A stretch of 64,000 nt of DNA from NCBI GenBank assembly GCA_963766595.1, contig CAVYAZ010000002.1:112924-176923 (forward strand). The letters run 5' to 3'. Below are positions 25,485 to 63,691 of this stretch, piece after piece (position 1 is the stretch's first letter; each line of letters begins with the position of its first letter). The notes beneath the pieces are model-generated. The model saw only the letters and a list, made by a program, of their open reading frames with translations. It made no database searches and was not told the origin of the DNA. Source of the stretch: an uncultured Gammaproteobacteria bacterium (lineage in GTDB: Bacteria > Pseudomonadota > Gammaproteobacteria > Xanthomonadales > Rhodanobacteraceae). Both the position numbers and the translations under genes were made by a program.

Positions 25485-26567
<1,083 letters not shown>

Positions 26568-26568
<1 letters not shown>

Positions 26569-27162: not shown

Positions 27163-27287
27163 TGCGGCAGCGCCTTCGACGCCGCTGCATGGTGCCCCGA
27201 CACCCGCCATTGCCATGCCAGCCGACACCGACGGCACGTCTCGCATCACCTGCCAAGCCTGCCGCGAGACAAGGCGGGAGGTAAGCA

Positions 27288-27959: not shown

Positions 27960-28489
27960 GCATGCATGCCATGCCTTTCTCGCGAGCAATCTGCGCAACA
28001 CTTGTCGGAAGCATGCTCCTGCTTGTTTCCGGCTGCACATCCGGGGACGCCGACCTGAAAGAATGGGTCGCGCACGAAAAAGCACAAAAGGGGGCACCGA
28101 TTGCGCCCCTGCCCGTACTGAAGACTTTCGAAACTTTCGAATATACGGACCAAGGCCTGCGGGATCCGTTCTCCCCAGGGCTTGAAGAACAGCAGACCGC
28201 GACAACCAGTGGGCCGCAGCCGGACAAGCACCCGCGCGAGCCGCTCGAACAGTACGCGCTCGACAGCATGAAGATGGTCGGAACGATCGGCACGGGTGCT
28301 TCCATCGAGGGTCTGATCAAGGACACCGAAGGAACGATCCACCGCGTACACAAAGGCAATTACCTCGGCCAGAACAACGGCAAGATAACCGGTGTTACAG
28401 AAATGCAAATCAATCTCGTGGAGCTGATCCCGAACGGGACCGGCGGTTGGATGGAACGCCAGGCCACCATTGCGCTGCCTGAGAAATAG
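27956..28489 (+). CDS. pilP: PilP lipoprotein
   Basis: Lipobox VSGC, RDPF, EPLEQYALDSMKMVGT, GNYLGQNNG. Confidence 0.94.
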   Translation: MSMHAMPFSRAICATLVGSMLLLVSGCTSGDADLKEWVAHEKAQKGAPIAPLPVLKTFETFEYTDQGLRDPFSPGLEEQQTATTSGPQPDKHPREPLEQYALDSMKMVGTIGTGASIEGLIKDTEGTIHRVHKGNYLGQNNGKITGVTEMQINLVELIPNGTGGWMERQATIALPEK

Positions 28490-28512
28490 ACGACCCATTT
28501 GGGGGTGCTTAA

Positions 28513-34745: not shown

Positions 34746-34850
34746 TGCCGGATGCGATCGCAGCGGGAACCCGGACCCTGCAGGCGCTGTCCTAGCAGCG
34801 CGCCGGCGTTTCCCAGCCGTGCGATCATTCACCTTTCCGAACCCGTTACC

Positions 34851-35846
34851 ATGGACATGCCAGAACCCATCTCTGCCGCCGGTCTGTCCGCAGCATTTCA
34901 CGCGCTGCGCGACCAACTGGGCAACTGCATCATCGGTCAGACCGCCCTGGTCGATCGCCTGCTGATCGCGCTGCTCGCCGACGGCCATCTCCTCGTCGAG
35001 GGCGCACCCGGGTTGGCGAAAACCACTGCGGTCAAGGAACTGGCTGCGCGCATCGAAGGCGACTTCCACCGCATCCAGTTCACACCGGACCTGCTGCCGG
35101 CCGATTTGACCGGCACCGAAATCTATCGTCCGCAGCAGGCGGTGTTCGAGTTCCAGCGCGGACCGATCTTCCACAACCTGCTGCTGGCCGATGAAGTCAA
35201 TCGCGCGCCGGCCAAGGTCCAGTCGGCGCTGCTCGAGGCAATGGGCGAGCGCCAGGTCACGGTCGGGCGCACGACCTACCTGCTTCCGCAGCTGTTCCTG
35301 GTCATGGCAACGCAAAATCCGATCGAGCAGGAAGGCACCTATCCGCTGCCCGAGGCACAGCTCGACCGTTTCCTGATGCACGTGCGCGTGGACTATCCGG
35401 ACGCTTCGGCCGAAGCGGCGATCCTGAAATTCGCCCGCGATCGCGCGCGCGACGCGTTGAGGGAGACGCCGCAGCCGGAGCGCTGCCTGTCGCAGGCGCA
35501 GATATTCGCAGCGCGCGCCGAGGTGTTGAACCTGCATCTCGCGCCGGCGCTCGAGGAATACATCGTGCAGTTCACGCTGGCAACGCGCACGCCCAAGGCC
35601 TACGGCGACGATCTCGCGCGCTGGGTCGCCTATGGCGCGAGTCCGCGCGGCACGATCGCGCTCGACCGCTGCGCGCGTGCGCACGCCTGGCTCAACGGCC
35701 GCGATTTCGTCGCACCCGAAGACGTGCATGCGGTCGCTGCCGACGTGCTGCGTCACCGCGTGTTGCTGTCCTATGAAGCCGAGGCCGAAGGCGTGACCGC
35801 CGACAAGCTGATCGGCATCCTGCTCGAGCGCGTGCCGTTGCCGTGA
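34851..35846 (+). CDS. MoxR family AAA+ ATPase
   Basis: EGAPGLAKT, RIQFTPDLLPAD, LADEVNRA, ATQNPIEQEGTYPLPEAQLDRF. Confidence 0.95.
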   Translation: MDMPEPISAAGLSAAFHALRDQLGNCIIGQTALVDRLLIALLADGHLLVEGAPGLAKTTAVKELAARIEGDFHRIQFTPDLLPADLTGTEIYRPQQAVFEFQRGPIFHNLLLADEVNRAPAKVQSALLEAMGERQVTVGRTTYLLPQLFLVMATQNPIEQEGTYPLPEAQLDRFLMHVRVDYPDASAEAAILKFARDRARDALRETPQPERCLSQAQIFAARAEVLNLHLAPALEEYIVQFTLATRTPKAYGDDLARWVAYGASPRGTIALDRCARAHAWLNGRDFVAPEDVHAVAADVLRHRVLLSYEAEAEGVTADKLIGILLERVPLP

Positions 35847-35851
35847 GAAGG

Positions 35852-36054
35852 CAGGGCTGAGGGCTGAGGGCCGAAAAGCGGCACCTCACGAAGCCGACCT
35901 CTGTTCCAGGTAACCATTCACGTAGAAACAGCAAATTTCCGCAACACGCTTTGATGCATTCAGCCCCCAGCCCTCGAACCTCGCGCCGAACTGGAAATAG
36001 CCGCCCGTAGCTCCACGTCGCCAATGCCCCCAGCCCTCAGCCCTCAGCCCTCAG
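35852..36054. repeat. Inverted heptamer arms (GGGCTGA)n / (CAGCCCT)n; the second arm is in frame in the DUF58 N-terminus
   Basis: 35852-35874, 35961-35973 and 36029-36054. Confidence 0.75.
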
Positions 36055-36977
36055 ATCTAAGCTCCATCAGTGTCACGCTGGCCGATCTCATCGCCATGCG
36101 CCAGCACGCGCGGCGCGAAGAGCACGCTGCCAGCAAGCGCGTCTTCGGCAGCCGCGCTGCCGCGCATGCATCGAAGCTGCGTGGACGAGGTGTGGACTAC
36201 GCTGAGTCGCGCAACTACCAGCCCGGTGACGACATCCGCCAGATGGACTGGCGCGTCACCGCGCGCACCGGCCGTCCGCACACCAAACTGTTCCAGGAGG
36301 AACGCGAGCGCAATACGCTGCTCGTCATCTCGCACAATCCCAGCATGCGCTTCGGCACGCGCGTGCGCTTCAAGTCGGTGCAGGCGGCGCGCCTGGCCGC
36401 GCTGATCGCCTGGTCGACGACGATGAGTGGCGATCGCGTCGGAGCAGTCGGCTACGGCCCGGCGCTCAACGCCGAAATCAAACCGGGGGGCGGCTCGCGC
36501 GGCGCATTGCGCGTCCTGCGCGCCTTGCACGAATGGGATGCGATCGCAGCGCAGGGACGCCTGGTCGTGCCGTTGTCGCGCGCGCTGCAACGCGCGCAGC
36601 GCCTCGCGCGGCCGGGCAGCCGCGTGATCCTGCTCGGCGACGGATTCGATTGCGATGCCGCGACCGAACCGGCGCTGTCGTTGCTGGCTCGCCACTGCGA
36701 TGTCGGCGCCGTGCTGCTCAGCGACCCGCTTGAACACGAGGCGCCGCCGCCGGCGCGCTATGCGCTGCACAGCGATCAGGGCCAGGTCCTGCTGGACTTT
36801 TCCACGGCAACGACGCGCAAGCGTTGGACCGAATTGTTCGAAGCGCGTCGCGCCCACTGGATCGACATGCTGCGCCGGCGCTCGCTGCGCTGGACGATGC
36901 TCGACACGCACGCCGAGCCGGAACTCGCGCTGCGCACGCTGCTTGGACAGCCGGCGCGCGGACGGGGCGTCGCGTGA
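36024..36977 (+). CDS. DUF58 domain protein (MoxR partner)
   Basis: RGRGVDYAESRNYQPGDDIRQMDWRVTAR...KLFQEERER; start uncertain because of the repeat. Confidence 0.9.
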   Translation: MPPALSPQPSDLSSISVTLADLIAMRQHARREEHAASKRVFGSRAAAHASKLRGRGVDYAESRNYQPGDDIRQMDWRVTARTGRPHTKLFQEERERNTLLVISHNPSMRFGTRVRFKSVQAARLAALIAWSTTMSGDRVGAVGYGPALNAEIKPGGGSRGALRVLRALHEWDAIAAQGRLVVPLSRALQRAQRLARPGSRVILLGDGFDCDAATEPALSLLARHCDVGAVLLSDPLEHEAPPPARYALHSDQGQVLLDFSTATTRKRWTELFEARRAHWIDMLRRRSLRWTMLDTHAEPELALRTLLGQPARGRGVA

Positions 36978-37465
36978 ACCCGCCGAACGCCGCGCCGGGC
37001 GGACCCGTGTTGCGGGACATCCACCTGCCACCGGCGCCAGGATGGTGGCCGCCGGCTCCCGGCTGGTGGTTGCTGGCCGCGATTGCCGTCGCTATTTCCA
37101 TTTGTATATTTGTTTACGCGCGCCGGAAATACCGGCAGCGGCGCTATCGGCGCGCGCTGATGGCCGAACTGGACCGTTGCATCGGCGAGGCGCGTGGCGA
37201 TCCTTCCGCGCTCGCCGCCGCGCTGTCGCGCTACCTGCGCCGGCTCTCGCGCCAGACAACACCGGCTGCTGCCACGCTCGCCGGCGAACGCTGGCTCGAG
37301 CATCTGGATGCGTGCGCGGAAACGAAAGAGTTCACATCCGGCGTCGGCCGCATCTTGATCGAGGCGCCATATCGCCCGGCGCCTGCCTACGATACGGCTG
37401 CGCTGATCGCCTTGGTGCGGCGCTGGGTGCGCGGCATGCTCGACCGGCACGTCGTCCATGCTTGA
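36974..37465 (+). CDS. DUF4381 family membrane protein
   Basis: LRDIHLPPAPGWWPPAPGWW motif; GTG start overlapping the DUF58 stop. Confidence 0.88.
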   Translation: MNPPNAAPGGPVLRDIHLPPAPGWWPPAPGWWLLAAIAVAISICIFVYARRKYRQRRYRRALMAELDRCIGEARGDPSALAAALSRYLRRLSRQTTPAAATLAGERWLEHLDACAETKEFTSGVGRILIEAPYRPAPAYDTAALIALVRRWVRGMLDRHVVHA

Positions 37466-38480
37466 GTGGGCCTGGCCATGGCTGTTTGTCGCGCTGCCGC
37501 TGCCGTGGCTGGTCGCGCGCCTGTGGCAGCCGGCACACACGCAGGCGAGCGCCGCATTGCGTTTGCCGTACGCGCTCGAAGGCCTCGACGCGGCAACCGG
37601 CGCTAACCCGGTGTCGCGCTGGCGGCGCGTGCTGGCGATCCTCGCCTGGTGCGCGCTGGTGGTTGCCGCCGCTCGTCCACAATGGGTCGGCGAAGCCGAG
37701 GCATTGCCGCGCAGCGGTCGCGATCTGCTGCTGGCGGTCGACGCTTCGGGCAGCATGAGCATCCAGGACATGGCCATCGGCGGCCGCGCCACGACGCGAT
37801 ACAGCGCGGTCAAGGCGATCGCCGGCGATTTCATCAAGCGCCGCGTGGGTGATCGCGTCGGCCTGATCGTATTCGGCACTCAGGCCTATCTCCTGACGCC
37901 CCTGACGTTCGATCGCGACACGGTGTTCAAGCAGCTCGACGAATCCGCAATCGGATTGCCCGGCAAGGAAACCGCAATCGGCGATGCGGTCGGGCTGGCG
38001 ATCAAGCGGCTGCGCGACCGTCCGCTCGACCGGCGCGTGCTGATCCTGCTGACCGATGGCGTCAATGATGCCGGCGAACTCGATCCGCGCAAGGCGATCG
38101 ACCTGGCCGTCTCCGAGCAGGTGAAGATCTATACGATTGGCATCGGTGCCGACTCGATGCGCGTCGATGGTTTCTTCGGCAGCCAGGTCGTCAATCCGTC
38201 GGCCGACATCGACGAGAAGATGCTGACGACGATGGCCGACAAGACCGGCGGCCGCTTCTTCCGCGCGCGCAACACGGCCGAACTTGCGCAGATCTACGGC
38301 GAGATCGACCGGCTCGAACCCAGCGCCGACGCGCAGCAGCAGTTCCGTCCGGTCGACGAGATCTTCTACTGGCCGCTGTCCGCGGCGGCGTTGCTGGCGC
38401 TGTTCGCCACGTTGCTCGCGTTGCCAAGTCCGCGAGCGCTGGCGAAGGGGGCCGCGACTGCGCAGGTAACGACACGATGA
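37458..38480 (+). CDS. BatA-like vWA domain protein
   Basis: AWPWLFVALPLP N-terminal TM, DASGS MIDAS, GDRVGLIVFG, LTDG, YTIGIG. Confidence 0.9.
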   Translation: MLEWAWPWLFVALPLPWLVARLWQPAHTQASAALRLPYALEGLDAATGANPVSRWRRVLAILAWCALVVAAARPQWVGEAEALPRSGRDLLLAVDASGSMSIQDMAIGGRATTRYSAVKAIAGDFIKRRVGDRVGLIVFGTQAYLLTPLTFDRDTVFKQLDESAIGLPGKETAIGDAVGLAIKRLRDRPLDRRVLILLTDGVNDAGELDPRKAIDLAVSEQVKIYTIGIGADSMRVDGFFGSQVVNPSADIDEKMLTTMADKTGGRFFRARNTAELAQIYGEIDRLEPSADAQQQFRPVDEIFYWPLSAAALLALFATLLALPSPRALAKGAATAQVTTR

Positions 38481-40444
38481 GCTGGCTCGGCGACTTCCAT
38501 TTCCTGCGTCCGTGGTGGTTGCTCGCGCTGGTTGCGCTGCCGCTGCTGTGGCGTTTGTTGCGCCAGGGTGATGCCGGCGCTGAAGCGTGGCGCGGCGCAG
38601 TCGACGCGCATCTGCTCGAACACTTGCTCGTGCGCGGCAAGGCCGAGCGCGGCGTGTCGCCGCACTGGCTCGTCGCTGGCGCATGGCTGCTCGGCTGCAT
38701 TGCGCTGGCCGGTCCAGCCTGGGAACGCCTGCCGCAGCCGCTCTTCCAGAACCGCGCTGCGCGCGTGATTGCACTGGAACTCGCGCCGAGCATGCTCGCG
38801 CAGGACGTCAAGCCGAGCCGCGCCGAGCGCGCGCGCTACAAGATCGCCGACATCCTGCGCCGCAGCGGCGACGCGCAGACCGCGTTGATCGCCTACGCCG
38901 GCGATGCATTCGTCGTCGCTCCGCTGACCGACGACTCGAATACGGTGGCCAATCTCGTCGATGCGCTCGAGCCGAGCATCATGCCGGCGGCCGGCAACGA
39001 CACGGGCCGCGCGATCGATCTCGGCGTAAAACTCGTGCAACAGGCCGGCCTGCGCGAAGGCGAGATCGTTCTTGTCGCCGACGCGGCCGGCAAGGATGCG
39101 GTCACCGCCGCAACTCGCGCGCTTGCGGCCGGTGTGCGCGTGTCGGCGCTCGGTATCGGTACGACGCAGGGCGCGCCAATTTCGATGACCGGCGGAGGGT
39201 TCCTCAAGGACTCGGCCGGCAATATTTCTATGCCCCGGCTCGACGCCGGGGGGCTGGCCGCGGTGGCGACCGCCGGTGGCGGACGGTACGCCACGTACAG
39301 CAGCGACGCGCACGATCTGGACAGCGTGCTCGACGATCTGCGTCCGCACGCGGCCGAAGAAGCGACGGCGGTCGATGCGCAGACCTCGCGCTTCCTCGAC
39401 CGCGGTCCGTGGTTGCTGCTGTTGCTCGTCCCGCTCGCCGCGCTCGGATTCCGGCGCGGGTGGCTGATGCTGCTGCCGTTGCTCGCGCTCGCGCAGCCGC
39501 AGCGCGCCGACGCGATGAGCTGGGCCGACCTGTGGTCGCGGCCGGATCAGCAGGCGCAGGCGGCGCTCGATGCCGGCGACGCCAAGCAAGCGCAGGCGCT
39601 CGCGCGCGATCCGCAGCTGCGCGGCAGCGCCGCTTACCGCGCCGACGACTACGCCGCCGCGGCGCAGGACTTCGATCGGCCGGAAAATGCCAACGCGCAA
39701 TACAACCTCGGCAACGCGCTGGCCAAGCAGAACAGATTTCCCGAAGCGATCGCCGCCTACGACCGCGCGTTGAAACAGAGTCCGCAACTGCCCGATGCCG
39801 CCGAAAACCGCAAGGCGGTCGAAGACTGGATGAAAAAACAGCAACAGCAGCAGAAGCAGCAGGGCAACGACCATCACACCGGCAACAACAGCGACCAGAG
39901 CCAGCAGAGTTCCGGCGGCGCCGACGAGTCGCAGCAGCCGCAGGACGACAAGGACCAGCAATCCGGTTCCAACGACGAGAAATCCGGCCAGGAAAACGCC
40001 GACCAGTCCGGCGACCAGCAGAGTGGCGAACAGCAGGGCAAGTCGCAGGACGGCAAGGAGCAGAACGGCGAGCAGGGCAAGCCACAGGGCGGCGGCGACG
40101 ACAAGGACACCCAGAGATCCGGCAACGCGCAATCCTCGGCCGACGACAAGTCGGGCAAGGGTCAGGCGAAGATGCAGCCGGAGTCGCAGGCCGCCGAACA
40201 GAAGGCGCAGCAGGAGTTCCAGCAGTCGATGGACCAGGCGCTGAAGAACGGCGCCGAGTCGAAGGACCAGAAGCCCGTGCGTCTCGGTGCGCAGGACGCC
40301 GGCACGCACAACGAAAAACAGCAGGCGGTCGAGCAATGGCTGCAGCGCGTTCCAGACGATCCGGGCGGATTGCTGCGGCGCAAGTTCCAGCTCGAAGCCT
40401 TGCGCCGCCAGCAAGGCGGACAGATCCCCGGAGACAGCCCATGA
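38477..40444 (+). CDS. BatB/BatC-like vWA + TPR protein with a Q/D/S-rich low-complexity tail
   Basis: FHFLRPWWLL, AYAGDAFVVAPLTDD, YNLGNALA TPR, EQWLQRVPDDPGGLLRRKF. Confidence 0.9.
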   Translation: MSWLGDFHFLRPWWLLALVALPLLWRLLRQGDAGAEAWRGAVDAHLLEHLLVRGKAERGVSPHWLVAGAWLLGCIALAGPAWERLPQPLFQNRAARVIALELAPSMLAQDVKPSRAERARYKIADILRRSGDAQTALIAYAGDAFVVAPLTDDSNTVANLVDALEPSIMPAAGNDTGRAIDLGVKLVQQAGLREGEIVLVADAAGKDAVTAATRALAAGVRVSALGIGTTQGAPISMTGGGFLKDSAGNISMPRLDAGGLAAVATAGGGRYATYSSDAHDLDSVLDDLRPHAAEEATAVDAQTSRFLDRGPWLLLLLVPLAALGFRRGWLMLLPLLALAQPQRADAMSWADLWSRPDQQAQAALDAGDAKQAQALARDPQLRGSAAYRADDYAAAAQDFDRPENANAQYNLGNALAKQNRFPEAIAAYDRALKQSPQLPDAAENRKAVEDWMKKQQQQQKQQGNDHHTGNNSDQSQQSSGGADESQQPQDDKDQQSGSNDEKSGQENADQSGDQQSGEQQGKSQDGKEQNGEQGKPQGGGDDKDTQRSGNAQSSADDKSGKGQAKMQPESQAAEQKAQQEFQQSMDQALKNGAESKDQKPVRLGAQDAGTHNEKQQAVEQWLQRVPDDPGGLLRRKFQLEALRRQQGGQIPGDSP

Positions 40445-55248: not shown

Positions 55249-55815
55249 ATGAACGCAAAGTCCACGATCCTGCTGGGGGCACTGTGCCTGATTCCCGTCG
55301 AATATGCCGTATCGGCGGTGTGCAAGCCGGCAGTTCTCGACGGCGACCGCGTGCTCGACACCTCTTACAACTATTGCGCCGACGGTAGTTGTGGCACGTA
55401 CCAGGTGGGATACGACGGCACCACAGACCTCGGCTTCGGCGGGGCGGAGCCGGATCAAATCTCCTTCGAATTCTATTCCTATATCGCCGCCACGCCACCG
55501 GCCACGGGCACGTTTGACTTGGGCAGCGGCAACAACACCAACTACGCAACCTGCAACCAATGCATTCTGATCTTTCAGGACTTGATCGCTCCGCACGACC
55601 CGCAGAAGACTTTTTTTCAGACCGGGGGATCGATCACGATCGACATGAACACAGTGCCGGGAACCGCCGCGAATGTGGGTCTTTCGTGGAGCAACGTGAC
55701 ACTGGCCGAGGTGACGATCGATCCAGACACGTTCGTGTCGACGCTGGTGCCGGGCGGAGACTGCTACACGGTCGTTGCCGACCTGGTGTTTCGCAACGGA
55801 TTTGACGCGCCATGA
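55249..55815 (+). CDS. Exported Cys-containing hypothetical protein with C-terminal DLVFRNGFD motif
   Basis: GGGAGG RBS; signal peptide; NYATCNQC; ends VADLVFRNGFDAP. Confidence 0.78.
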   Translation: MNAKSTILLGALCLIPVEYAVSAVCKPAVLDGDRVLDTSYNYCADGSCGTYQVGYDGTTDLGFGGAEPDQISFEFYSYIAATPPATGTFDLGSGNNTNYATCNQCILIFQDLIAPHDPQKTFFQTGGSITIDMNTVPGTAANVGLSWSNVTLAEVTIDPDTFVSTLVPGGDCYTVVADLVFRNGFDAP

Positions 55816-56072
55816 TTCGTCAGCCGGCCGGTTCGCGCAAAAGGGGCGAGCAGTCCGCGGGGCAACGATGATGCGGGTCTTGGCGCAGTGACGCGTCCGT
55901 TGGCCACCGCGTGTGGTTGGTGGAAGTTTTTGACTGCTTCGTGCTCATAGGCATCCCAGGCCTTCTCATGCGCCGATAGTGTACGAGTCGTCTTCGACTT
56001 CTTGATCTCTCCTTGTCTGACGGCAGGTATATATTGCAGCCGCTTGGGCACAGAAGGAGGAACATAACGGCC

Positions 56073-56741
56073 ATGCGCGTCAACGACGATTTCTCCGAGC
56101 GCGTCGTCATCCAGACAAACGAGCTGCCATGGATTGCCTCGCCCCAGCCCGGCGTCGAGCGGCGAATGCTCGACCGCATCGGCGACGAAGTCGCACGCGC
56201 CACGTCGCTGGTGCGCTACGCGCCGGCCAGCGTCTTCGAGCCTCACGTTCACGGGCTCGGCGAAGAGTTCCTCGTGCTCCAAGGCATTTTCTCCGACGAG
56301 CACGGCGACTACCCGGCCGGCACTTACGTGCGCAATCCGCCAGGTAGCTACCATTCGCCGCGCACGGAGCCCGGCTGCATCATCCTGGTCAAGCTGCGCC
56401 AGATGGCGCCGACGGAACGCGAACGCATCGTCGTTGACACTGCGAAAGCGCAGTGGCGACGAGGCGACGCCGAAGGGCACACGCGCCTGGATTTGTATAC
56501 GAACGGCGAAAACGGCGAGCACGTAACGATCGAACGCCTCGGTGCCGGCACGAGTCTTCCAGCGATGGAGCGTCCAGACGGCGAGGAGATCTTCGTTCTG
56601 TCTGGCTGCCTGGACGACGGGCAGGGCGAACATCTTTCGGGCACCTGGATTCGCAATCCACCTGGGTATCGATGTAGCCTGAATTCAGAGCGCGGCGCGG
56701 TATTCTGGGCCAAGCGCGGCCATCTGAACGCGGCACGGTGA
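56073..56741 (+). CDS. ChrR-like cupin (cupin_7) protein
   Basis: GVERRMLDRIGDEVARATSLVRY, HVHGLGEEFLVL, YVRNPPGSYHSP. Confidence 0.88.
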   Translation: MRVNDDFSERVVIQTNELPWIASPQPGVERRMLDRIGDEVARATSLVRYAPASVFEPHVHGLGEEFLVLQGIFSDEHGDYPAGTYVRNPPGSYHSPRTEPGCIILVKLRQMAPTERERIVVDTAKAQWRRGDAEGHTRLDLYTNGENGEHVTIERLGAGTSLPAMERPDGEEIFVLSGCLDDGQGEHLSGTWIRNPPGYRCSLNSERGAVFWAKRGHLNAAR

Positions 56742-56807
56742 GAAAGGTCAGTTCCGCGGCGCTGAGTCGTAACCGATCGGCGCAGCTCGGAGAAGATCGA
56801 GGCGACG

Positions 56808-57518
56808 TCAGTCTTTGTGCGTGTCGCGGTGCTCGCCGCAGCCTTGTGCGCTGCGGCCGGGATGCTCCGCGCACGGAACCTTGCCGCTGTCGCCGTCCGC
56901 TGCGTAGGCCGGATCGAGCGCAGCGACGACCGCGCGGACACCGGCCTTGATATACGGCACGGAGTCCGCCTTGAACGGGGGATCCGCCTTGTGGTGATAG
57001 TCCGACTGCGCGATGAGCTTCCCGTCTGCGGCCGCATAGACATACATGTCGGCCTGGTAGCCAACCTTTGGGGGAACGAAGCCGCCCATGCCGGTGTTTT
57101 CGCTCGCGTAGCTCGGCGTGGCGAACGGTGCGAAGCGCACGACGATGCGTTAGTCGACGCCGCCATCGGTCTTGGCGCGCTGCGTGGCCGGCACGCCGGC
57201 ATTGGCGTCGAACGCAGCAGGGTTTGCCAGTTCCGTGATTGCCGCCTGTGCACGTCCGGCGCTCGCGACGATTGCCAGCACGACGACGAGTGCGACATAA
57301 ACCAGCGCGAAGCGGATCGAGGACCACGGCGGCGTTTTTCGGCGCGCCAGCAACCAGCAGACCAGCGCGGCGATGCCGGTGTTGGCAAAGACACGCCCTA
57401 TGGCTTCACCCGCACCATCGGGCGAACCCGGCGCTCCGACAAATGCGAACAGCGCCGCGACGATAACTCCGAGCGCTGCAACCCAGCAGACAAGGGCTTG
57501 TTTGGCGGCGAGTGACAT
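56808..57518 (-). pseudogene. Membrane protein of unknown function apparently split by one in-frame TAA (57150-57152), or two adjacent small genes
   Basis: ORFs 57150-57518 (3 TMs) and 56808-57140 share a frame: ...DGGVD*RIVVRFAPF... Confidence 0.4.
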
Positions 57519-57599
57519 AGTCGAACCCACTGGAGAGTCGCGCGGACGTTACAGGAGGAAACGCAGAACAGCGGCAAAAGCGAAGAGTTTGCTGCTTTC

Positions 57600-57697
57600 G
57601 TCGGTTGGGTCGAACCAGGTGAAGCCCAACGTCGATGTCAGGTTTGCTGATCGTTATCGCTGCGCTCAACCCAGCCTGCGCCTCGACCCAACCTATG
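57600..57697. repeat. Degenerate GTAG-type REP doublet (GGTTGGGTCGA ... TCGACCCAACC)
   Basis: Arms at 57603-57613 and 57683-57693, with internal gttggg/cccaac hairpin; supplies the stop codon of the next gene. Confidence 0.65.
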
Positions 57698-58427
57698 GTC
57701 CGGTTTGCTGCGCACCAGGGTGATCCAGCAATTCGACCAGAATGACGTGGTACTCATCGCCTCCGCTGTTCTTCACGCGATGCACATAGGGCAGCGGTCC
57801 CTTCTCGATCGTCACGGCGCCGCTCGGTAAAACCTCCGGCGACGTCCACTCGCCCCCGGACTTTTGCGCGGAGATGCGGCTACCTGGGATTCTCACGCCA
57901 ACATTGGGGAACTCGTGTCGATGCCACTGGGTCGTCTCGCCGGGCGGAATGCGCGCTTCGACGATGCGGAAGTAGGGCGTCTGCATTACCCAGTGATGAT
58001 GCGGCTCGTGCAGAATCCCTTCCGGTTCGACGGTGCTGCCGTCATCCGGCGCGGCTTGCGACGTGCCAAGTTGCGCTTGCCGCTTGAATTCGATTTCGAT
58101 ATTCTCGACCGGCGTGTTGCCGATATTGGCGACAGCATGCGTCTCCGGCCCGAATGCCAGTGGCCGCTTCTGCGGATCGACGGCAACGACCACGCTGCTG
58201 CCAACGGGCTTGCTCAGGCGCAGCGTTCCGGACTGTACCGCGATCACGACGCGTGGCGGATGGCTGTGCATCGCCGCGCTTGCGCCAGGCTCGTAGTGCG
58301 AGCGGATCACGCGAATGTTTGCGTCTTCGTACTCGACTTTCGCAATCGCAGGCGAGACCTGCATCAGGTCCTGCGCGACCGCGTTGCCCAGCAGCAGTGC
58401 GAACGGCAGGCAGCGCAGCAGGGTCAT
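57693..58427 (-). CDS. Exported tandem-cupin protein
   Basis: Signal peptide; two modules EDANIRVIRSHYEPGASAAMHSHP and TPYFRIVEARIPPGETTQWHRH. Confidence 0.8.
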   Translation of the reverse strand: MTLLRCLPFALLLGNAVAQDLMQVSPAIAKVEYEDANIRVIRSHYEPGASAAMHSHPPRVVIAVQSGTLRLSKPVGSSVVVAVDPQKRPLAFGPETHAVANIGNTPVENIEIEFKRQAQLGTSQAAPDDGSTVEPEGILHEPHHHWVMQTPYFRIVEARIPPGETTQWHRHEFPNVGVRIPGSRISAQKSGGEWTSPEVLPSGAVTIEKGPLPYVHRVKNSGGDEYHVILVELLDHPGAQQTGP

Positions 58428-58539
58428 CGGTCTTTCCTCAAGCGGGTGGAACAAGGTAGCACGCCGCATGGCTGCGGCGACTTGCGGCGCAGTACGCTGC
58501 GCCTAATACGCTGCGTCTAAAGAGAAACCTCAGACAAGC

Positions 58540-58613
58540 CGTCATCCCAGCGAAGGCTGGGATCCAGTTCCCCAGCAATCTGCAAAAAAGGCTGGATTTC
58601 AGCCGGGATGACG
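58540..58613. repeat. Palindromic element GTCATCCCAGCGAAGGCTGGGATCCAG ... CTGGAT..GGGATGAC
   Basis: Nested hairpin with terminal GTCATCCC/GGGATGAC inverted repeat; widespread proteobacterial repeat type. Confidence 0.75.
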
Positions 58614-58618
58614 AACGT

Positions 58619-58640
58619 AGGTGAACCTGTCACCCTTTTT
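58619..58640. repeat. REP unit GTGAACCTGTCACCCTTTTT
   Basis: Same core as 59535-59553, 59613-59634 and 63671-63691. Confidence 0.7.
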
Positions 58641-58654
58641 ACTGTTTTTAATGG

Positions 58655-59431
58655 CTACGGCCCGAACGAGTCGGCGAAGATGCGGTCATCCTGGCCGTTC
58701 AGCGTGAACGCGAGATTGAACGAGCTGCCGCTGCCGATCATGTCGGTGCCGATACGCAACCAGTTCGGTGCAAGGTTCGCGTTGCGGATCCAGGCCTGCT
58801 GGTCCGACGCGAACGGTGTGCCGGGCGATACGATGGGACGCGATCCAGAGAGCCAGTAGAAACCGCCACTGAAGAGCGCTACCTGCGCGACGAAGAAGTA
58901 GTGGCCATTGGGCAGCGTGATCGCGGGAATGAAGGTCGCTGTGACCACACCCTCTGCGCCGGACACTGGACCTTCGCCGCCGGTCAGGTTGTTCGGCGCG
59001 GGATTGATTCCATTGAGCACCGAATTCAACGCCGAGAAACTCGGGTTCAGCAGCGTGAACGAGACGGTGAGGCTGTCGGTCGCCGTGTCGCGCGCTTCGT
59101 ACGCGACGTCGGAAGGTGAATTGACGCGAGTCGGCGAGCCTGGCGGGGGCGGGTTCGTCGAATCGAGCGGAAACACGCGGTAGATTTTGACGACGACCTC
59201 GCTGATTGAAGCCCCGGACGCGCCACTCGGCAGCAATCCGGTGAAGGTCGCACTCGTCAGTGTCGTCTGCAGCGGCAGCACGAAGTCGTCCGCAGCCTCC
59301 TTGAACGCCGAGCCGGGCTGCGATGCCGCAGCGAGCAGATTGCTCGGCGTTCCGGTGCTGAAGGCGTAGGGATTGGCCAGCGCAGAGGATGTCGTCGCCA
59401 GCAGGGCCGAAACAAGCCATGAGAGTTTCAT
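58655..59431 (-). CDS. Exported protein with C-terminal DDRIFADSF motif
   Basis: Signal peptide MKLSWLVSALLATTSSALA; VPTR/VNSPSDVA-type conserved core; ends NGQDDRIFADSFGP. Confidence 0.8.
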   Translation of the reverse strand: MKLSWLVSALLATTSSALANPYAFSTGTPSNLLAAASQPGSAFKEAADDFVLPLQTTLTSATFTGLLPSGASGASISEVVVKIYRVFPLDSTNPPPPGSPTRVNSPSDVAYEARDTATDSLTVSFTLLNPSFSALNSVLNGINPAPNNLTGGEGPVSGAEGVVTATFIPAITLPNGHYFFVAQVALFSGGFYWLSGSRPIVSPGTPFASDQQAWIRNANLAPNWLRIGTDMIGSGSSFNLAFTLNGQDDRIFADSFGP

Positions 59432-59491
59432 TGCGATCACCCGAGGGGCATCGGCTGGAAGCATAGCCGCTCAGCCGGCGCCGGCGCCAAC

Positions 59492-59720
59492 GAAACGGTG
59501 TCAGCGTCGTTTCCTCTGCTTGAAACGAGTGTATGTGAACCTGTCACCGTTTCGTAAGTGAATCGCGCCCGACAAAGTGGATCAGGTACACGTCTTGGTC
59601 GAGCAGGGAGGGAAAATGAACCTGACCCCGTTTTCGCCCCTGAGCCCAACGGCGCAGACACAGACGAATCGAGACAAGCGCATCAGAGTGCCTTATTCGA
59701 CGCAAATGGCACTCTGACCC
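59492..59720. repeat. Cluster of REP units: GAAACGGTGTCAG/CTGTCACCGTTTC doublet, AAAATGAACCTGACCCCGTTTT, and TCAGAGTGCC/GGCACTCTGA doublet
   Basis: 59492-59553, 59613-59634 and 59683-59720. Confidence 0.7.
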
Positions 59721-59739
59721 GCTAGCCATTTGCCACCAT

Positions 59740-60099
59740 TCAACCGCCGGGAATCGACAACACGGGCATGACCTCGATCGAATCGCCTGGGAAGATCGTG
59801 AAATGCGGGTGCCGTTCGAACATACGGGCGGCGGCTTCGTGCGAATCCGCGCGCACGACCGTGAAGGCGCCGAGTTCATTGGCGACGTCGCCGATTCCGC
59901 TTGCGGAAACCTTCTTTGTGCTGCCCAGTGGTCCGCCCATCGCGACTATGGCGGACTGATACTTCTCGGCCCAAGCCTTCCATGCCGCCATGCCCTCCTG
60001 CTCCTTCGCCTGGCGCTCGGCCGGCGACAACGCATTCCAGTTCTTAAATCCATCCTTGCTGCCGAGAAAGATCGCGAGATAGGTTCCGGTCGGATTCAT
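59740..60099 (-). CDS. YCII-related domain protein
   Basis: AWKAWAEK..IVAMGGPLG..FTVVRADSHEAAARMF..HPHF..IEVMP. Confidence 0.78.
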   Translation of the reverse strand: MNPTGTYLAIFLGSKDGFKNWNALSPAERQAKEQEGMAAWKAWAEKYQSAIVAMGGPLGSTKKVSASGIGDVANELGAFTVVRADSHEAAARMFERHPHFTIFPGDSIEVMPVLSIPGG

Positions 60100-60232
60100 C
60101 GTGGGCTCTCCGTTGTCAGGGCGAGACATTCGCCTTCTCATCATACGACGATCGAAAGGCGCGACGATGCATTCGCGCAACGCCACGATCCAGGTCGCCG
60201 CAACAACGGTGAAGATCACGGGCAAATTAAAG

Positions 60233-61550
60233 GGTTCGTTCACCCAATTCCGGGAAAGGCAGCTCGGATCTTGAGAAAGAAGTAAACATCGTCCCGAAAG
60301 CCGTAAGCCATGCGCTTGATGACTTTGATGCGGTTATTGATGCCCTCAATGAGGTTGGTGCCCAGCGGATAGCGGCAGTGAGCCAGAATGCCGGGCAAGT
60401 AAGGTCGCAGGGCGCGAGCGAAGCGTCGCAGCGGTTCGATGCCACTGCGCAAGGCTTTTCGGTACCAGCTTCGCCAGGCACGAAAGGCGTAACCGCGGTG
60501 ACGGTAGTGCCATAGCTCTTTGAGCGCGTCGCGCAATACGTAGACGACGAATAGGTCGTGGTTTGCGGAGCAGTTCGTCCAGTGTCACATCCTCGCCTGG
60601 CCGCAACGAAGCCCGGTTCTTGAGCAGCAACCAGCGGGCACTCTTGACGATACGACGCGCCGGTCGGTTCGCGCGCAGTTCGTTGGCGCGATCCACGCGG
60701 ACCCGGTCGATCACCTCACGTCCGTACTTGGCGACCACGTGGAAAAGATCGAAGACGATGGCCGCGTGTTTGCAGTGCTCACGCACCTCGAGTTCGTAGC
60801 CAGCATTCATGTCCATCACGGCGGCTTTGAGCTGGCCACAACGTTCGGGGCCAAGCAGGGTGAAGAACGGGCGGACGTCCTGGCGTCCGCGGCCACGTCC
60901 GACCCACAACACGCGCTTGCGTGTCGGCTCGACGATGACGGTCGCGTAACGGTGGCCTTTTTGAATCGCGAATTCATCCATCCCGATCACCTCCACGCCG
61001 TCCAGATCGATCGGACCCAGTTCGCGCTCCAGGTAGGCCCGGTCCAGGTCCTTCACCGTTTTCCAGTCCAGCACGTAGAACCGCGCCACGTGCAGGATCG
61101 CGGCGACCTTGCATAAGCGCGACACCGAGTCGGCCAGGCGCCGGGTAACCCGCGCGTACGCATCCAGCCATGGCAGCCGCTCGACCTTGGGACCGCACCG
61201 AGGGCACTCGACCCGTATGCGCGGCACGATCAGCTCGACCGAGTGCTCGAACACCGGTAAGTCGCGGACCCGGCGTTCCTCCACATCGTGGATCCCTGTC
61301 GTCCGGAACCCGCAACCGCTACAGCAGCGCAGATGACTCGCCAGCGCCACGAGCTCAATCACGCACCAGGATCGACCCTGACGCACCTCGATGTGGTCTT
61401 CCTTGACCTCATACCCTTCCCAGCTTCCAAGCTGAGACATAGGATGGCATTGGGCCACGGTCGCCTCCTGCAGACTTGATGCTTCGCAACACCAAGTTAG
61501 CAGCGCGACCGTGCGCCCGCTTCAGTTACCCCGGAGATTGGAGAAGAACC
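60233..61550 (-). mobile_element. ISL3-family insertion sequence, 1318 bp, with 9-bp target duplication AAATTAAAG
   Basis: Ends GGTTCGTTCACCCAATTCCGGG / CCCGGAGATTGGAGAAGAACC (imperfect inverted repeats); AAATTAAAG at 60224-60232 and 61551-61559. Confidence 0.9.
60240..61458 (-). CDS. ISL3 transposase; frameshift near 60568
   Basis: CCSGC/CPRC zinc ribbon, IGMDEFAIQKGHRYAT, VMDM, FDLFHVV, EGINNRIKVIKRMAYGFRD. Confidence 0.92.
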
Positions 61551-61570
61551 AAATTAAAGAGGCGTTACAA

Positions 61571-62443
61571 AAAAAGGCCGGGGCAAATCAACGAGGGCGT
61601 TAGGCAATTACGTGTTGTCGGCGGGACTGTCGACACCGCTGCGCGAAGCCGGACGTCCCCGCGGCCGAACCGAAGCAGGGCGATTCAGCGTCCGCTCGAC
61701 CATTGCCCGAAAGCGGGCGTCGCCGTACGCACGCTGTTGCACCGCGTGCGCGCGGATCGTCTTGAGCTGTTCTTCGCTTTCGCCGGCGTGCAACCATTCG
61801 CGATAGGCGACACGCCGTGACTTCGCATCGGCACCGAGCGCGAGCAGACAAGGATGTGGCGCGATCAACGAATCGCACTTCAGACCGAGGTTCGCGTGAA
61901 CGCTCGACCAGGCGTAATCCTCCGGCGCCGCAACCATTCCAGCACGCACCGGGTTGCGCTCGATATAGCGGTAGACGCTCAGCACGTAGTGATCGGTCGC
62001 AACGAGGCAGGATTTGAAGCGGCCTTCCCACAGCGTACCGCTACGGTGGTGGCGATGGTTGAACGCCTGTACATAGCATTGCGTGGACCGGTGCAACGTC
62101 GCCGTCGCGGCGCCGGGAGTCGGTGCGCTGGTGAGCAGATGAACGTGATTGCCCATCAGCACGTAGGCGTGGATGGCGAGCGCGTTCTGCCTGGCAAAAA
62201 GTCCAAGCAGGCGCAGATAGTCATGTCGATCGTCGTCGTCGAGGAACGTGGCGCAGCGGTTCACGCCTCGCTGCGTGATGTGCAAGGGTACGCCAGGGAG
62301 CTCGAGACGCGGCGGACGAGGCATGCGGGCGATGGGCGGGGAAGGTGATGAATTTTCGTGCCCGCCTTCATGGTCCGCCATCGGAACGATGCGTCACCGC
62401 GTGTAGGAGTTTTCCTATACCTAATTTGCCCCGGCCCCTTTTC
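61571..62443 (-). mobile_element. RAYT/Y1-transposase locus bounded by inverted REP-like units
   Basis: AAAAAAGGCCGGGGCAAAT (~61571-61589) and ATTTGCCCCGGCCCCTTTT (~62425-62443) are reverse complements with 2 mismatches. Confidence 0.7.
61608..62324 (-). CDS. REP-associated tyrosine transposase (RAYT, Y1/HUH family)
   Basis: MPRPPRL..PGVPLHITQRG, HAYVLMGNHVHLL (HUH), LWEGRFKS, YIERNPVRAG, YAWSS. Confidence 0.92.
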   Translation of the reverse strand: MPRPPRLELPGVPLHITQRGVNRCATFLDDDDRHDYLRLLGLFARQNALAIHAYVLMGNHVHLLTSAPTPGAATATLHRSTQCYVQAFNHRHHRSGTLWEGRFKSCLVATDHYVLSVYRYIERNPVRAGMVAAPEDYAWSSVHANLGLKCDSLIAPHPCLLALGADAKSRRVAYREWLHAGESEEQLKTIRAHAVQQRAYGDARFRAMVERTLNRPASVRPRGRPASRSGVDSPADNT

Positions 62444-62471
62444 CGCGAGAACTGCGCCGTCCCTTAAACAG

Positions 62472-62519
62472 AAAGGGGACGTAGCTAATTAGCCCCGCTC
62501 AATTAGCTACGTCCCCTTT
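62472..62519. repeat. Perfect 19-bp inverted-repeat doublet (REPIN-like)
   Basis: AAAGGGGACGTAGCTAATT - 10 nt - AATTAGCTACGTCCCCTTT. Confidence 0.85.
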
Positions 62520-62529
62520 ACCTGTTCTT

Positions 62530-63558
62530 TCACTGAGCATCGGTCAAGCACTGGATCGTCGTTTGCAACGAGAAGTTCGAACCGATGGTGTGGCGCTGCG
62601 CCCGAAACAGGTCGAGCCGGTACGTGTTACCCGGCGTAAGCCCATAAAAAGCTGCATGCGCGGGGTCGAGGGTCACCGACCCGGTCGTTGCAGCGTGGAC
62701 GCCGCCCAGATCGATGACGAGCTTGCCGTCGATGTAGATCCATACGTCGTCATCCCCGGTGAAGGAGACCGTCTCGCCGCCGTGGAACGCGAATTGCGCG
62801 TGCAGCATGGTGGTGAAGTCGTAGTTGTGCCCGGTGCTACCGAGGTTGCCGAAGCCGAGGCCGTCGATCGGAAAGTAGGCAGTGTTCGAAAACTTGAACG
62901 TGCCGGGTGGATTCTCGGTGAGCAGCAGCGACTGCTGGATCGGCAAGTTGATGGTGTCGTCCGTGAACCATTGCGCGAACGAATCGGCGCTGGCGATTTG
63001 TACTTTTGTCGGGCCCAGGCTCCCATATGTCGATTGAAGCGTCGGCACACCGCCGGGCACGATGCTCGAGGCGGCAAGGCCGGTAGCAAGCCCTGCGTCG
63101 AATTGCTCGAAGTCCGGATGGCCGCCGGCTTCGAAGTAGGCCTTGAAGTCGTGGAGATATGCTGTCAGCGTGCCGCAGGGCACGACTGTCACCGGCTTCG
63201 ACGCCACGCTGGCCTCTTCGTTCGTGCCGTCACGGACCGTCTCGGTGACGGTGTACATTCCGCCGGCCGGGAAGGCGTGGACCGGATTCTGCAAGGTCGA
63301 TGTGCCGCCATCACCGAAGTCCCAGGCCCACGAACCGATCGTCCCGCCGACATCAGCTGATTGGTCGGTGAACGTTACCGCCAATCCCTCGGCGGCAAAG
63401 GTGAAGTCGGCCACCGGCGGAGGATCGAACGCGTCGGCGAATATCTCGTCGGATGCCGCTTCGTCGGGAAGCGCGAAGGCAACGCCGTTGGCAGCAAACG
63501 CGAGCGCGATGATCAACGCACGGGTGCAGTGCGGGTGTAAAGCGATGGCGTTTTTGAT
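62530..63558 (-). CDS. Exported PKD + fibro-slime (PA14-like) domain protein with N-terminal DEIFADAF motif
   Basis: SWAWDFGDG PKD; GHPDFE, YFPIDGLGFGN, HNYDFT, FTGDDDVWIYIDGKLVIDLGGVH; start uncertain (ATC after AGGGG at 63558; the ORF is open to 63657). Confidence 0.85.
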   Translation of the reverse strand: MKNAIALHPHCTRALIIALAFAANGVAFALPDEAASDEIFADAFDPPPVADFTFAAEGLAVTFTDQSADVGGTIGSWAWDFGDGGTSTLQNPVHAFPAGGMYTVTETVRDGTNEEASVASKPVTVVPCGTLTAYLHDFKAYFEAGGHPDFEQFDAGLATGLAASSIVPGGVPTLQSTYGSLGPTKVQIASADSFAQWFTDDTINLPIQQSLLLTENPPGTFKFSNTAYFPIDGLGFGNLGSTGHNYDFTTMLHAQFAFHGGETVSFTGDDDVWIYIDGKLVIDLGGVHAATTGSVTLDPAHAAFYGLTPGNTYRLDLFRAQRHTIGSNFSLQTTIQCLTDAQ

Positions 63559-63640
63559 GGGTTCGCCCCTGGGCCGAAAGACGGGCCAGAGGATAACCGG
63601 AAGCGCCAACAGGGAGATAGGGTGAGAGTGCCCAACCGAT

Positions 63641-63691
63641 AACGGTGTCAGGTTCACTTACACTCATTCGGTAAGTGAACCTGACACCGTT
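63641..63691. repeat. Perfect 21-bp inverted-repeat doublet (REPIN-like)
   Basis: AACGGTGTCAGGTTCACTTAC - 9 nt - GTAAGTGAACCTGACACCGTT. Confidence 0.85.

Follow-up and report, generated by a model that had tools for sequence, protein, structure and literature searches.

A short C-terminal tail on unrelated exported proteins of Lysobacterales: a candidate sorting or docking tag

Introduction

Why should three otherwise unrelated exported proteins, encoded within 9 kb of each other in an uncultured soil bacterium of the Rhodanobacteraceae, carry the same short peptide, in two cases at their very C-terminus? This question is raised by a 64-kb stretch of DNA, hereafter the window, in which a first-pass annotation made from the sequence alone had noticed a D-x-[IV]-F-x-x-x-F motif on three proteins that seemed to share nothing else, which we call P1, P2 and P3 (Table 1). 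It was proposed that this motif replaces a known sorting tag and marks the substrates of an uncharacterised secretion or surface-attachment route, possibly involving the pilus secretin and Bat systems encoded nearby. Here, we examine whether the motif is real, how far it extends beyond the window and what it might do. The observation itself is confirmed, while the interpretation put on it is only partly supported.

Three copies of a short motif in one window

All three copies are present in the window. P1 ends in VVADLVFRNGFDAP and P2 in GQDDRIFADSFGP, both directly followed by the stop codon, while in P3 a signal-peptide-like stretch ending in GVAFA is followed by LPDEAASDEIFADAFDPPPVADF. In the six-frame translation of the 64 kb, the pattern D.[IVL]F..[GSA]F hits nowhere else. 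Residue shuffling of 44 putative window proteins (16,727 aa) gave a mean of 0.06 hits, and none of 5,000 shuffles reached the three observed. The three proteins share no domain, since P1 and P2 have no Pfam or NCBIfam hit, whereas P3 consists of PKD (PKD_4, 60 bits) plus fibro-slime TIGR02148 (101 bits against a cut-off of 45). Nor is this a DNA repeat, because the three DNA stretches are only 13-20 of 27 bases identical and differ at synonymous sites. One correction to the first-pass annotation concerns the start of P3, which had been placed at an ATC, not a canonical start codon; an in-frame GTG or a TTG further downstream is more likely, and the hydrophobic stretch plus AFA cleavage motif remains either way. 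P2 (S for G, G for D/E) and P3 (A for G) are slightly off the family consensus D-x-[IV]-F-x-[DN]-G-F-[DE].

Table 1. Coordinates of the three motif-bearing proteins and their elements within the window.
Position	Strand	Feature	Basis
55249..55815	+	P1, 188-aa exported protein of unknown fold family carrying the C-terminal tail	ORF; identical 188-aa product called in public data (P0121); AF2 core pLDDT above 90, no PDB fold match
55249..55317	+	P1 signal peptide MNAKSTILLGALCLIPVEYAVSA	Read from the sequence: short basic n-region, hydrophobic core, VSA cleavage motif
55780..55812	+	P1 tail DLVFRNGFD + AP, followed by the stop codon	Last 8 residues with pLDDT about 50 and no secondary structure
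58655..59431	-	P2, 258-aa exported beta-sandwich protein (predicted)	ORF; core family of more than 6,400 homologues, mostly PEP-CTERM-tailed in other phyla; only weak jelly-roll resemblance
59375..59431	-	P2 signal peptide MKLSWLVSALLATTSSALA	Read from the sequence
58658..58687	-	P2 tail DRIFADSFG + P, followed by the stop codon	D, F and F invariant in 23 tail-bearing homologues; pLDDT below 50 for residues 251-258
62530..63657	-	P3, PKD + fibro-slime (PA14-like) exported protein; start codon uncertain (63657 GTG or an internal TTG; 63558 is ATC)	Ortholog in Rudaea MAG locus L002, 3881-4876
63424..63450	-	P3 N-terminal copy DEIFADAFD, 7 residues after the predicted AFA cleavage site, followed by a PPP linker and the PKD domain	Conserved in the L002 ortholog; further N-terminal examples in L189, L190 and L145

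A modular tail in Lysobacterales

The motif extends well beyond the window (loci used for comparison are designated by L numbers). Among 63 homologues of P1, 35-100% identical, 56 end in the tail, and the D, F, G and F positions are 82-100% conserved against a core mean of 64-74%, while the x positions vary freely. Of the 120 best homologues of P2, 49 end in the tail, most of the others having a PEP-CTERM tail at the same junction. Tail-bearing P2 homologues end in FNxAFSLxG-[DE]DDxIFxxGF[DE], whereas most of the other top hits end in FNxAFSLxG-xVPEP-hydrophobic-RRR (PF07589), so that the tail sits exactly where homologues from other phyla carry PEP-CTERM. The first-pass annotation was therefore right that the P2 core occurs elsewhere with PEP-CTERM tails, while its parallel suggestion for fibro-slime cores remains a suggestion. 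In tandem two-domain P2 proteins (locus L044), only the last domain carries the tail. Across 160 kb of Lysobacterales sequence (the loci plus the window), we found no PEP-CTERM tail, and 17 of 18 motif hits in the eight Lysobacterales loci were C-terminal tails, while 1.11 Mb from other taxa held 43 PEP-CTERM tails and no consensus motif tail, a contrast that is inflated by the anchoring of the genome loci on P2 homologues. No exosortase was seen in these loci, which cover only about 20 kb each.

The motif is a portable element on unrelated signal-peptide proteins and is strongly enriched at termini. In a metagenome scan, 98 of 121 in-frame hits lie within 14 residues of a stop, 31 of them with the stop directly after E (binomial p about 1e-96 against a 6% null), although this sample was selected by a codon-specific pattern and is of unknown taxonomy. 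Tail lengths peak sharply at 9-12 and 21 residues, and the last residue is mostly D, E or P. A total of 92 carriers fall into 46 unrelated clusters. A signal-peptide-like start is found in 59 of 71 tailed ORFs against 214 of 476 other ORFs (Fisher p 7e-10), but this is a crude heuristic with a 45% background. Carriers include a CSLREA/rhombotarget-A-like protein and, in L002 and L044, choice-of-anchor Q proteins (NF041518, 56 and 74 bits against a cut-off of 25), in which the tail follows DIGA[YF]E within about 3-10 residues. These families carry other anchors elsewhere, as illustrated by a Diaphorobacter choice-of-anchor Q protein that has IPTL-CTERM instead. Every named carrier is from Lysobacterales (Rudaea, Dokdonella, Pseudolysobacter and other Rhodanobacteraceae).

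Not every copy is a tail. The N-terminal form seen in P3 is rare (about 3 of 128 metagenome hits), and the motif also occurs at internal domain junctions. In some proteins (L084, L108, L121 and L188), it is the first stretch of an unnamed domain of about 210 aa. No remnant of this long domain lies downstream of about 100 short tails, which are therefore not fresh truncations. As for the machinery, nothing links the motif to the PilQ secretin or to the MoxR/DUF58 Bat-like genes of the window, which sit among housekeeping genes, and no gene family recurs next to motif genes in about 130 loci. No Pfam or NCBIfam model and no paper that we found covers the motif.

What might the tail do

What the analysis establishes is that bacteria of the order Lysobacterales (Rhodanobacteraceae: Rudaea, Dokdonella, Pseudolysobacter and uncultured relatives) append a modular tail of about nine residues, usually followed by 0-3 residues and the stop codon, to the extreme C-terminus of many unrelated Sec-exported proteins, and more rarely place it directly behind the signal peptide or in a Pro-rich linker. 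This element is under selection as a peptide, and in three 'choice-of-anchor'-type families it occupies the slot used elsewhere by PEP-CTERM, GlyGly-CTERM or IPTL-CTERM signals. Its function and its partner, on the other hand, are inferred from position and carriers alone. The tail would not be part of the fold of the protein to which it is attached (the P1 model has an overall pLDDT of 87, with the tails of P1 and P2 left unstructured, although low pLDDT is weak evidence for disorder), but an exposed linear peptide with an acidic-aromatic face (I/V, F, F flanked by D, D/N, D/E) that a partner recognises in trans after export to the periplasm. Most likely, it is a sorting or retention tag that routes its carriers across or onto the outer membrane, or holds them at the cell surface or in the matrix. 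Because it has no transmembrane helix and no basic cluster, it cannot be handled by an intramembrane sortase (exosortase, rhombosortase, myxosortase), and in this view the partner must be periplasmic, in the outer membrane or extracellular. We hold this explanation to be only somewhat more likely than not, since it rests on no experimental evidence on localisation and on no identified partner gene, and since N-terminal and internal copies are unusual for a strictly C-terminal sorting signal and fit a generic docking or structural strand as well.

A bolder possibility, which the evidence does not rule out but which we consider rather unlikely, is that the tail is the address label of an undescribed post-Sec route in Lysobacterales, that is, a nine-residue linear code without a transmembrane segment, readable at either terminus or in a linker, which an outer-membrane or periplasmic machine (a type II secretion system using a linear signal, or an unknown receptor) would read to export dozens of folded proteins or fix them to the surface. 

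Short C-terminal sorting signals such as LPXTG, PEP-CTERM and GlyGly-CTERM have each led to the discovery of a dedicated sorting machine, and the known ones use a membrane-spanning segment. The present tail shows the same pattern of many carriers and one motif, and sits in the same slot, but has no membrane segment, and thus points to a different recognition mechanism. If it is a linear export or retention code, (i) many 'hypothetical' proteins of Rhodanobacteraceae and related uncultured soil bacteria could be annotated as exported or surface proteins, (ii) it would give a simple handle for finding the machine and (iii) it would offer a very small tag for protein display. It also marks the large unnamed P2 core family as a 'choice-of-anchor' type surface protein.

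Among the alternatives, the one that we take most seriously, although it is unlikely, is that the tail is a docking strand rather than a sorting signal, that is, an orphan copy of the first beta-strand of a jelly-roll-type domain, which would pair with another tail or with an acceptor domain and thereby tie secreted proteins to each other or to a scaffold in the matrix or on the surface (a cohesin-dockerin-like role without any role in transport). The long domain of about 210 aa speaks in its favour, since its last stretch (F[FW]D.FES) resembles the motif with which it starts (L084, L108, L121, L188 and L189), and since a 21-residue tail, D.IF.DGFESG[DN]TS.WS.TVP before the stop, equals its first ~18 residues. 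So do the tolerance for N-terminal, C-terminal and linker positions and the adhesin-like nature of the carriers (beta-helix, fibro-slime, PKD). However, no acceptor domain lacking its first strand was identified, the long domain has no Pfam, NCBIfam or PDB match to establish its fold, the strand-pairing geometry is itself an inference, and only the short tail and the P3 form were seen in the Lysobacterales loci.

Slightly more doubtful is a role in processing or stability, in which the motif would be recognised by a periplasmic or secreted protease that trims C-terminal extensions, so that long and short forms mature to the same end, or would be a cap protecting the C-terminus from tail-specific proteases. 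The motif does lie at junctions before removable-looking C-terminal domains, including an S8 peptidase (L204) and a subtilase (L194), one repeat family carries either the bare tail (L106, L164 and L179) or the tail plus the domain of about 210 aa (L084) at the same junction, and tails mostly end in D, E or P. Yet a cleavage site with nothing after it, as in the hits that end exactly at E, has no obvious use, nothing here identifies a protease, and a protective cap explains neither the invariant D/F/G/F pattern nor the N-terminal copies. That the tails are neutral vestiges of lost C-terminal domains or of lost PEP-CTERM anchors could be argued from the proteins in which the motif starts a domain and from the lack of PEP-CTERM tails in Lysobacterales loci, but this is already disfavoured, and very unlikely, in view of the conservation of motif positions above that of the protein cores, the sharp peaks in tail length, the absence of downstream domain remnants, the lack of resemblance to PEP-CTERM sequence and the occurrence on 46 unrelated families. 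Chance similarity of three short peptides, which a short and degenerate motif might have suggested, is refuted by the shuffling test and by the large recurrence at termini elsewhere.

Comparison with known systems

A close parallel is PEP-CTERM, the exosortase-dependent sorting signal (PF07589, TIGR02595). Like it, the tail is located at the extreme C-terminus of many unrelated signal-peptide proteins per genome and occupies exactly the same junction in the P2 core family, with carriers that are adhesin-like or of unknown function, as described for PEP-CTERM proteins (10.1101/2023.06.07.544157). However, there is no hydrophobic transmembrane segment and no Arg/Lys cluster, so that it cannot work like PEP-CTERM. 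There is also no Pro-Glu-Pro motif, the tail is about 9-12 residues long instead of about 25, it can also sit N-terminally or in linkers, and profile searches gave no hit at E<=0.1 on whole proteins or E<=10 on tails. With GlyGly-CTERM/rhombosortase, IPTL-CTERM, MYXO-CTERM, PGF-CTERM and other tripartite signals, it shares the status of an alternative anchor on the same carrier families (choice-of-anchor Q, CSLREA/rhombotarget-like), but while these combine a signature motif, a transmembrane segment and a basic cluster, and are cut by intramembrane proteases (10.1101/2023.06.07.544157), the tail has only a signature motif.

Another parallel is the first strand of jelly-roll carbohydrate-binding or LamG-type domains (NG.FE.G...W in CBM4_9-like starts), since the long form D.IF.DGFESGDLS.WS starts a beta-rich C-terminal domain, but that domain matches no Pfam, NCBIfam or PDB entry, so that the resemblance is one of pattern alone, and most occurrences of the motif have no domain after it. 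The T9SS C-terminal domain (Por_Secre_tail, TIGR04183) is likewise a C-terminal signal without a transmembrane segment on Sec-exported cargo, including choice-of-anchor families, but it is a folded Ig-like domain of 70-100 residues found in Bacteroidota, whereas the present element is 9-12 residues long, unstructured in AF2 models, found in Lysobacterales and without an NCBIfam hit. Finally, the outer-membrane-protein beta-signal, read by the BAM complex (PMC1634882), is also a short, aromatic-rich, C-terminal peptide recognised in the periplasm, as is proposed for the tail, but it ends in an aromatic residue and belongs to the last strand of a membrane barrel, whereas here the last residues are mostly D, E or P, the carriers are soluble beta-helix or beta-sandwich proteins (the P1 core is predicted to be a soluble beta-sandwich) and the tail lies outside the predicted fold.

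A motif shared by three exported proteins

The three genes (P1, P2 and P3) and their motif copies are where the first-pass annotation had placed them, and its observation therefore holds. P1 ends in ...VVADLVFRNGFDAP and P2 in ...GQDDRIFADSFGP, each followed by the stop codon, while P3 reads ...GVAFA|LPDEAASDEIFADAFDPPPVADF..., with the motif directly after a signal-peptide-like stretch. One coordinate detail differs, since position 63558, where P3 was thought to start, is an ATC codon, and the true start is probably the GTG at 63657 or an internal TTG. The pattern D.[IVL]F..[GSA]F occurs nowhere else in the six-frame translation of the 64 kb, and shuffling the residues of 44 putative proteins of the window (16,727 aa) gave 0.06 hits on average, with none of 5,000 shuffles reaching three. 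P1 and P2 match no Pfam or NCBIfam family, whereas P3 is a PKD plus fibro-slime (TIGR02148) protein. A search with full-length P3, PKD domain included, against 1.84 billion representatives returned only giant multi-PKD proteins and was uninformative about the N-terminal motif. The three coding stretches differ at synonymous positions (13-20 of 27 bases identical), so the similarity is at the peptide level and a DNA repeat can be rejected.

Coordinates of the motif genes and of other features in the window and in the Rudaea sp. MAG locus L002 (DATNFS010000130.1)
Sequence	Coordinates	Strand	Feature
Window	25711-30753		PilM, PilO and a PilQ secretin with AMIN domains (ORFs in the PilN and PilP positions, by position only)
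Window	34746-40444		MoxR AAA ATPase plus DUF58 at the head of a Bat-like cluster
Window	55249-55815	+	P1
Window	56808-57149	-	ORF without Pfam hit
Window	57150-57530	-	ORF without Pfam hit
Window	57693-58502	-	ORF without Pfam hit; signal-peptide-like start (MTLLRCLPFALLLGNAVAQDL), no tail
Window	58655-59431	-	P2
Window	59740-60243	-	ORF without Pfam hit
Window	60240-61458 and 61608-62393	-	ISL3-family transposase split over two frames and, next to it, an IS200-like Y1 transposase
Window	60346-61458		ISL3 ORF with the Zn-ribbon, HTH and DDE positions 1-148
Window	60240-60536		ISL3 ORF with DDE positions 152-240
Window	62530-63657	-	P3
L002	1918-14118		Six motif-bearing genes within about 12 kb
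L002	5062-6420		Choice-of-anchor Q gene with the tail
L002	16041-19307		Large Ser/Thr protein kinase

The motif in the P1 and P2 families

P1 has 63 homologues, all metagenomic and 35-100% identical, 56 of which end in D-x-[IV]-F-x-[DNS]-G-F-[ED], mostly followed by x-P and the stop. P2 belongs to a very large family (more than 6,400 hits), and among the 120 best hits 49 end in [DE]-D-D-x-I-F-x-[DN]-G-F-[DEG] one or two residues before the stop. Most of the others end in V-P-E-P, a hydrophobic stretch and an Arg cluster, which is a PEP-CTERM domain (PF07589) attached at the same junction, right after the conserved ...FNxAFSLxG strand. In both families the defining positions (D, F, G and F) are 82-100% conserved, above the mean of the protein cores (64-74%), while the x positions vary freely. 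Tandem two-domain P2 proteins also exist (in the Dokdonella locus L044, and in P0009 and P0012, two of the 120 best hits), and in such proteins only the last domain carries the tail (L044).

The P2 core, which is spread over many phyla and usually comes with PEP-CTERM, has no Pfam or NCBIfam model and is in effect an unnamed choice-of-anchor type domain. A scan of one genome per species found 407 P2 relatives, the best 80 loci of which span Acidobacteriota, Verrucomicrobiota, Planctomycetota, Gemmatimonadota, Chloroflexota-like lineages and Alpha-, Beta- and Gammaproteobacteria. Tail-bearing copies come only from Lysobacterales MAGs or from MAGs labelled no more precisely, that is, Rudaea (loci L002 and L008), Rhodanobacteraceae (L003), Pseudolysobacter (L005), Dokdonella (L044), 'uncultured Gammaproteobacteria bacterium' (L004) and 'Proteobacteria bacterium' (L006 and L007, one MAG). 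P2 of the window is 87-89% identical to the L002, L003 and L004 copies, so the window most likely comes from a Rudaea-like member of Rhodanobacteraceae.

In these eight Lysobacterales loci, 17 of 18 motif hits begin 9-17 residues before the stop of ORFs of 139-668 codons, the 18th being the P3 ortholog, whereas the roughly 70 loci from other taxa show only scattered internal matches. The reverse holds for PEP-CTERM-type tails, with 43 in 1.11 Mb of other taxa and none in 160 kb of Lysobacterales sequence (the loci plus the window), although this contrast is partly built in because every locus is anchored on a P2 homologue. The six motif-bearing genes clustered in L002 encode a CSLREA protein with the tail, the P3 ortholog with the N-terminal motif, a choice-of-anchor Q protein with the tail, the P2 ortholog and two more beta-helix-type ORFs ending ..GAFEAAEIIFRDGFDGS and ..AVERQSPEVIIFRNGFESG. 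The three genes of the window are the remnant of this cluster. In L002, which is syntenic with the window, the interval that in the window holds the ISL3-family transposase (probably a frameshifted IS copy) and the IS200-like transposase is occupied instead by the choice-of-anchor Q gene with the tail.

Generality of the tail

A metagenome scan with a DNA pattern encoding D-x-I-F-x-[DN]-G-F-E retrieved at least 120 loci with 128 in-frame hits, and for 121 of these a stop codon lies within the locus. Of these, 81% lie within 14 residues of the C-terminus, where about 6% would be expected for a random position (p about 1e-96).

Number of residues between the final E of the motif and the stop codon in 121 in-frame metagenome hits
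Residues after E	Hits
0	31
1-3	33
4-8	22
9-14	12
15-30	4
more than 30	19

With a looser motif, 92 tail-bearing ORFs from these loci fall into 46 clusters with no detectable similarity to each other. A crude signal-peptide heuristic scores 59 of 71 tailed ORFs positive against 214 of 476 other ORFs from the same loci (Fisher p 7e-10), which, owing to the high background, is only indicative. Identified carriers include choice-of-anchor Q proteins (NF041518) and a CSLREA/rhombotarget-A-like protein. A profile made of the choice-of-anchor Q end plus the tail was used to retrieve the 120 top hits, 102 of them with the tail, and the named tail-bearing ones are a Lysobacterales bacterium, Dokdonella sp. 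and a Rhodanobacteraceae bacterium. In contrast, a choice-of-anchor Q protein on a Diaphorobacter plasmid carries IPTL-CTERM in the same place, and the idea that the motif precedes IPTL-CTERM was not borne out in this one IPTL-CTERM protein examined. In the metagenome locus L156, three paralogous ORFs on the same strand each end in the tail (..CDEIFFDGFES, ..CDAIFKDGFE and ..VDEIFKNGFESA, each followed by the stop), which is kept through gene duplication. The viral collection gave only 6 pattern hits, mostly chance.

Minority forms were also found. About 3 of 128 metagenome hits sit right after a signal peptide (loci L189, L190 and L145), like P3, and about 15% sit at internal junctions, often next to Pro/Ala-rich linkers, including in an S8 peptidase and a subtilase. 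A recurrent 21-residue tail reads D.IF.DGFESG[DN]TS.WS.TVP followed by the stop, and equals the first ~18 residues of an unnamed C-terminal domain of about 210 aa, which in some proteins begins with the motif (D.IF.DGFESGDLS.WS...), ends ..F[FW]D.FES.R...IGP and can be repeated in tandem, sometimes three times, behind Pro-rich linkers (metagenome loci L084, L108, L121, L188 and L189). This domain has no match in Pfam, NCBIfam or PDB sequences. No remnant of it lies downstream of any short tail, so the short tails are not fresh truncations.

Structure predictions

The P1 model (from a 44-sequence alignment) has a pLDDT of 87 overall and above 90 for residues 25-177, but the last eight residues fall to about 50 with no secondary structure, while in the P2 model (pLDDT 69) residues 251-258 are below 50. 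Neither core has a significant PDB fold match (none for P1, only a weak jelly-roll resemblance for P2), and PDB sequence searches were empty. A peptide that is strongly conserved but not predicted to pack on its carrier is what one expects of a short linear motif read in trans, although low confidence is not proof of disorder.

Genomic neighbourhood and proposed partners

The first-pass annotation had proposed the pilus secretin and Bat systems of the window as possible partners, but these were rejected for lack of any specific link. PilM, PilO, the PilQ secretin and the MoxR/DUF58 cluster, like the Mla genes, SpoT, RecG, PBP1A and citrate synthase that the window also carries, are ordinary housekeeping genes 15-30 kb away from the three motif genes, and nothing ties them to the motif. 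The genes between the three motif genes are unrelated, i.e. a SnoaL-like protein, TauE, a ChrR cupin and the ISL3 and IS200-like transposases. Four ORFs between the motif genes have no Pfam hit. All-against-all clustering of 690 ORFs from about 130 motif loci found no recurrent neighbour apart from a large Ser/Thr protein kinase with a repeat-rich C-terminal region (TPR-like by eye; 35-42% identical between loci), which lies near motif genes in five independent loci (L002 and the metagenome loci L093, L099, L123 and L131) and could be a coincidence or a regulatory module for these secreted proteins. The lack of a recurrent neighbour is as would be expected for a many-to-one sorting system whose putative machine is encoded elsewhere.

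How the tail might work

The interpretation of the first-pass annotation is thus supported in part, since the tag-like nature of the motif and the replacement of PEP-CTERM hold, whereas a sorting function is only inferred and the named partners are unsupported. What our analysis establishes is that the tail is a selected, modular, terminal peptide on many unrelated exported proteins, that it sits in the slot of known sorting signals and that among named organisms it is confined to Lysobacterales. The rest is inference, namely that after Sec export the exposed tail, with a hydrophobic face of I/V, F and F flanked by acidic residues, would be bound by a periplasmic, outer-membrane or extracellular partner, which would either pass the folded carrier across the outer membrane or keep it at the surface or in the matrix. 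In this view, tolerance of N-terminal and linker positions fits recognition of an accessible peptide rather than of a free C-terminus.

We consider this sorting or retention reading somewhat more likely than not. A docking strand that pairs with a jelly-roll-type acceptor or with another tail is possible but doubtful, and a processing or stability element is less likely still, while a functionless vestige is very unlikely and chance is all but ruled out.

Comparison with known sorting signals

No Pfam or NCBIfam model touches the tail, even at E<=10 on isolated tails, and searches of the literature on the motif itself, on sorting signals and choice-of-anchor proteins and on Xanthomonadales secretion signals, as well as within the myxosortase paper, found no description of it, although coverage was incomplete and a prior description elsewhere cannot be excluded. 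The tail behaves like a short terminal sorting tag with many unrelated carriers. The known C-terminal signals have a motif, a transmembrane helix and a basic cluster, and are cut by intramembrane proteases (10.1101/2023.06.07.544157), whereas the tail has only the motif, so that mechanism is, by inference, excluded for a tag that lacks the membrane segment by which the described signals are defined.
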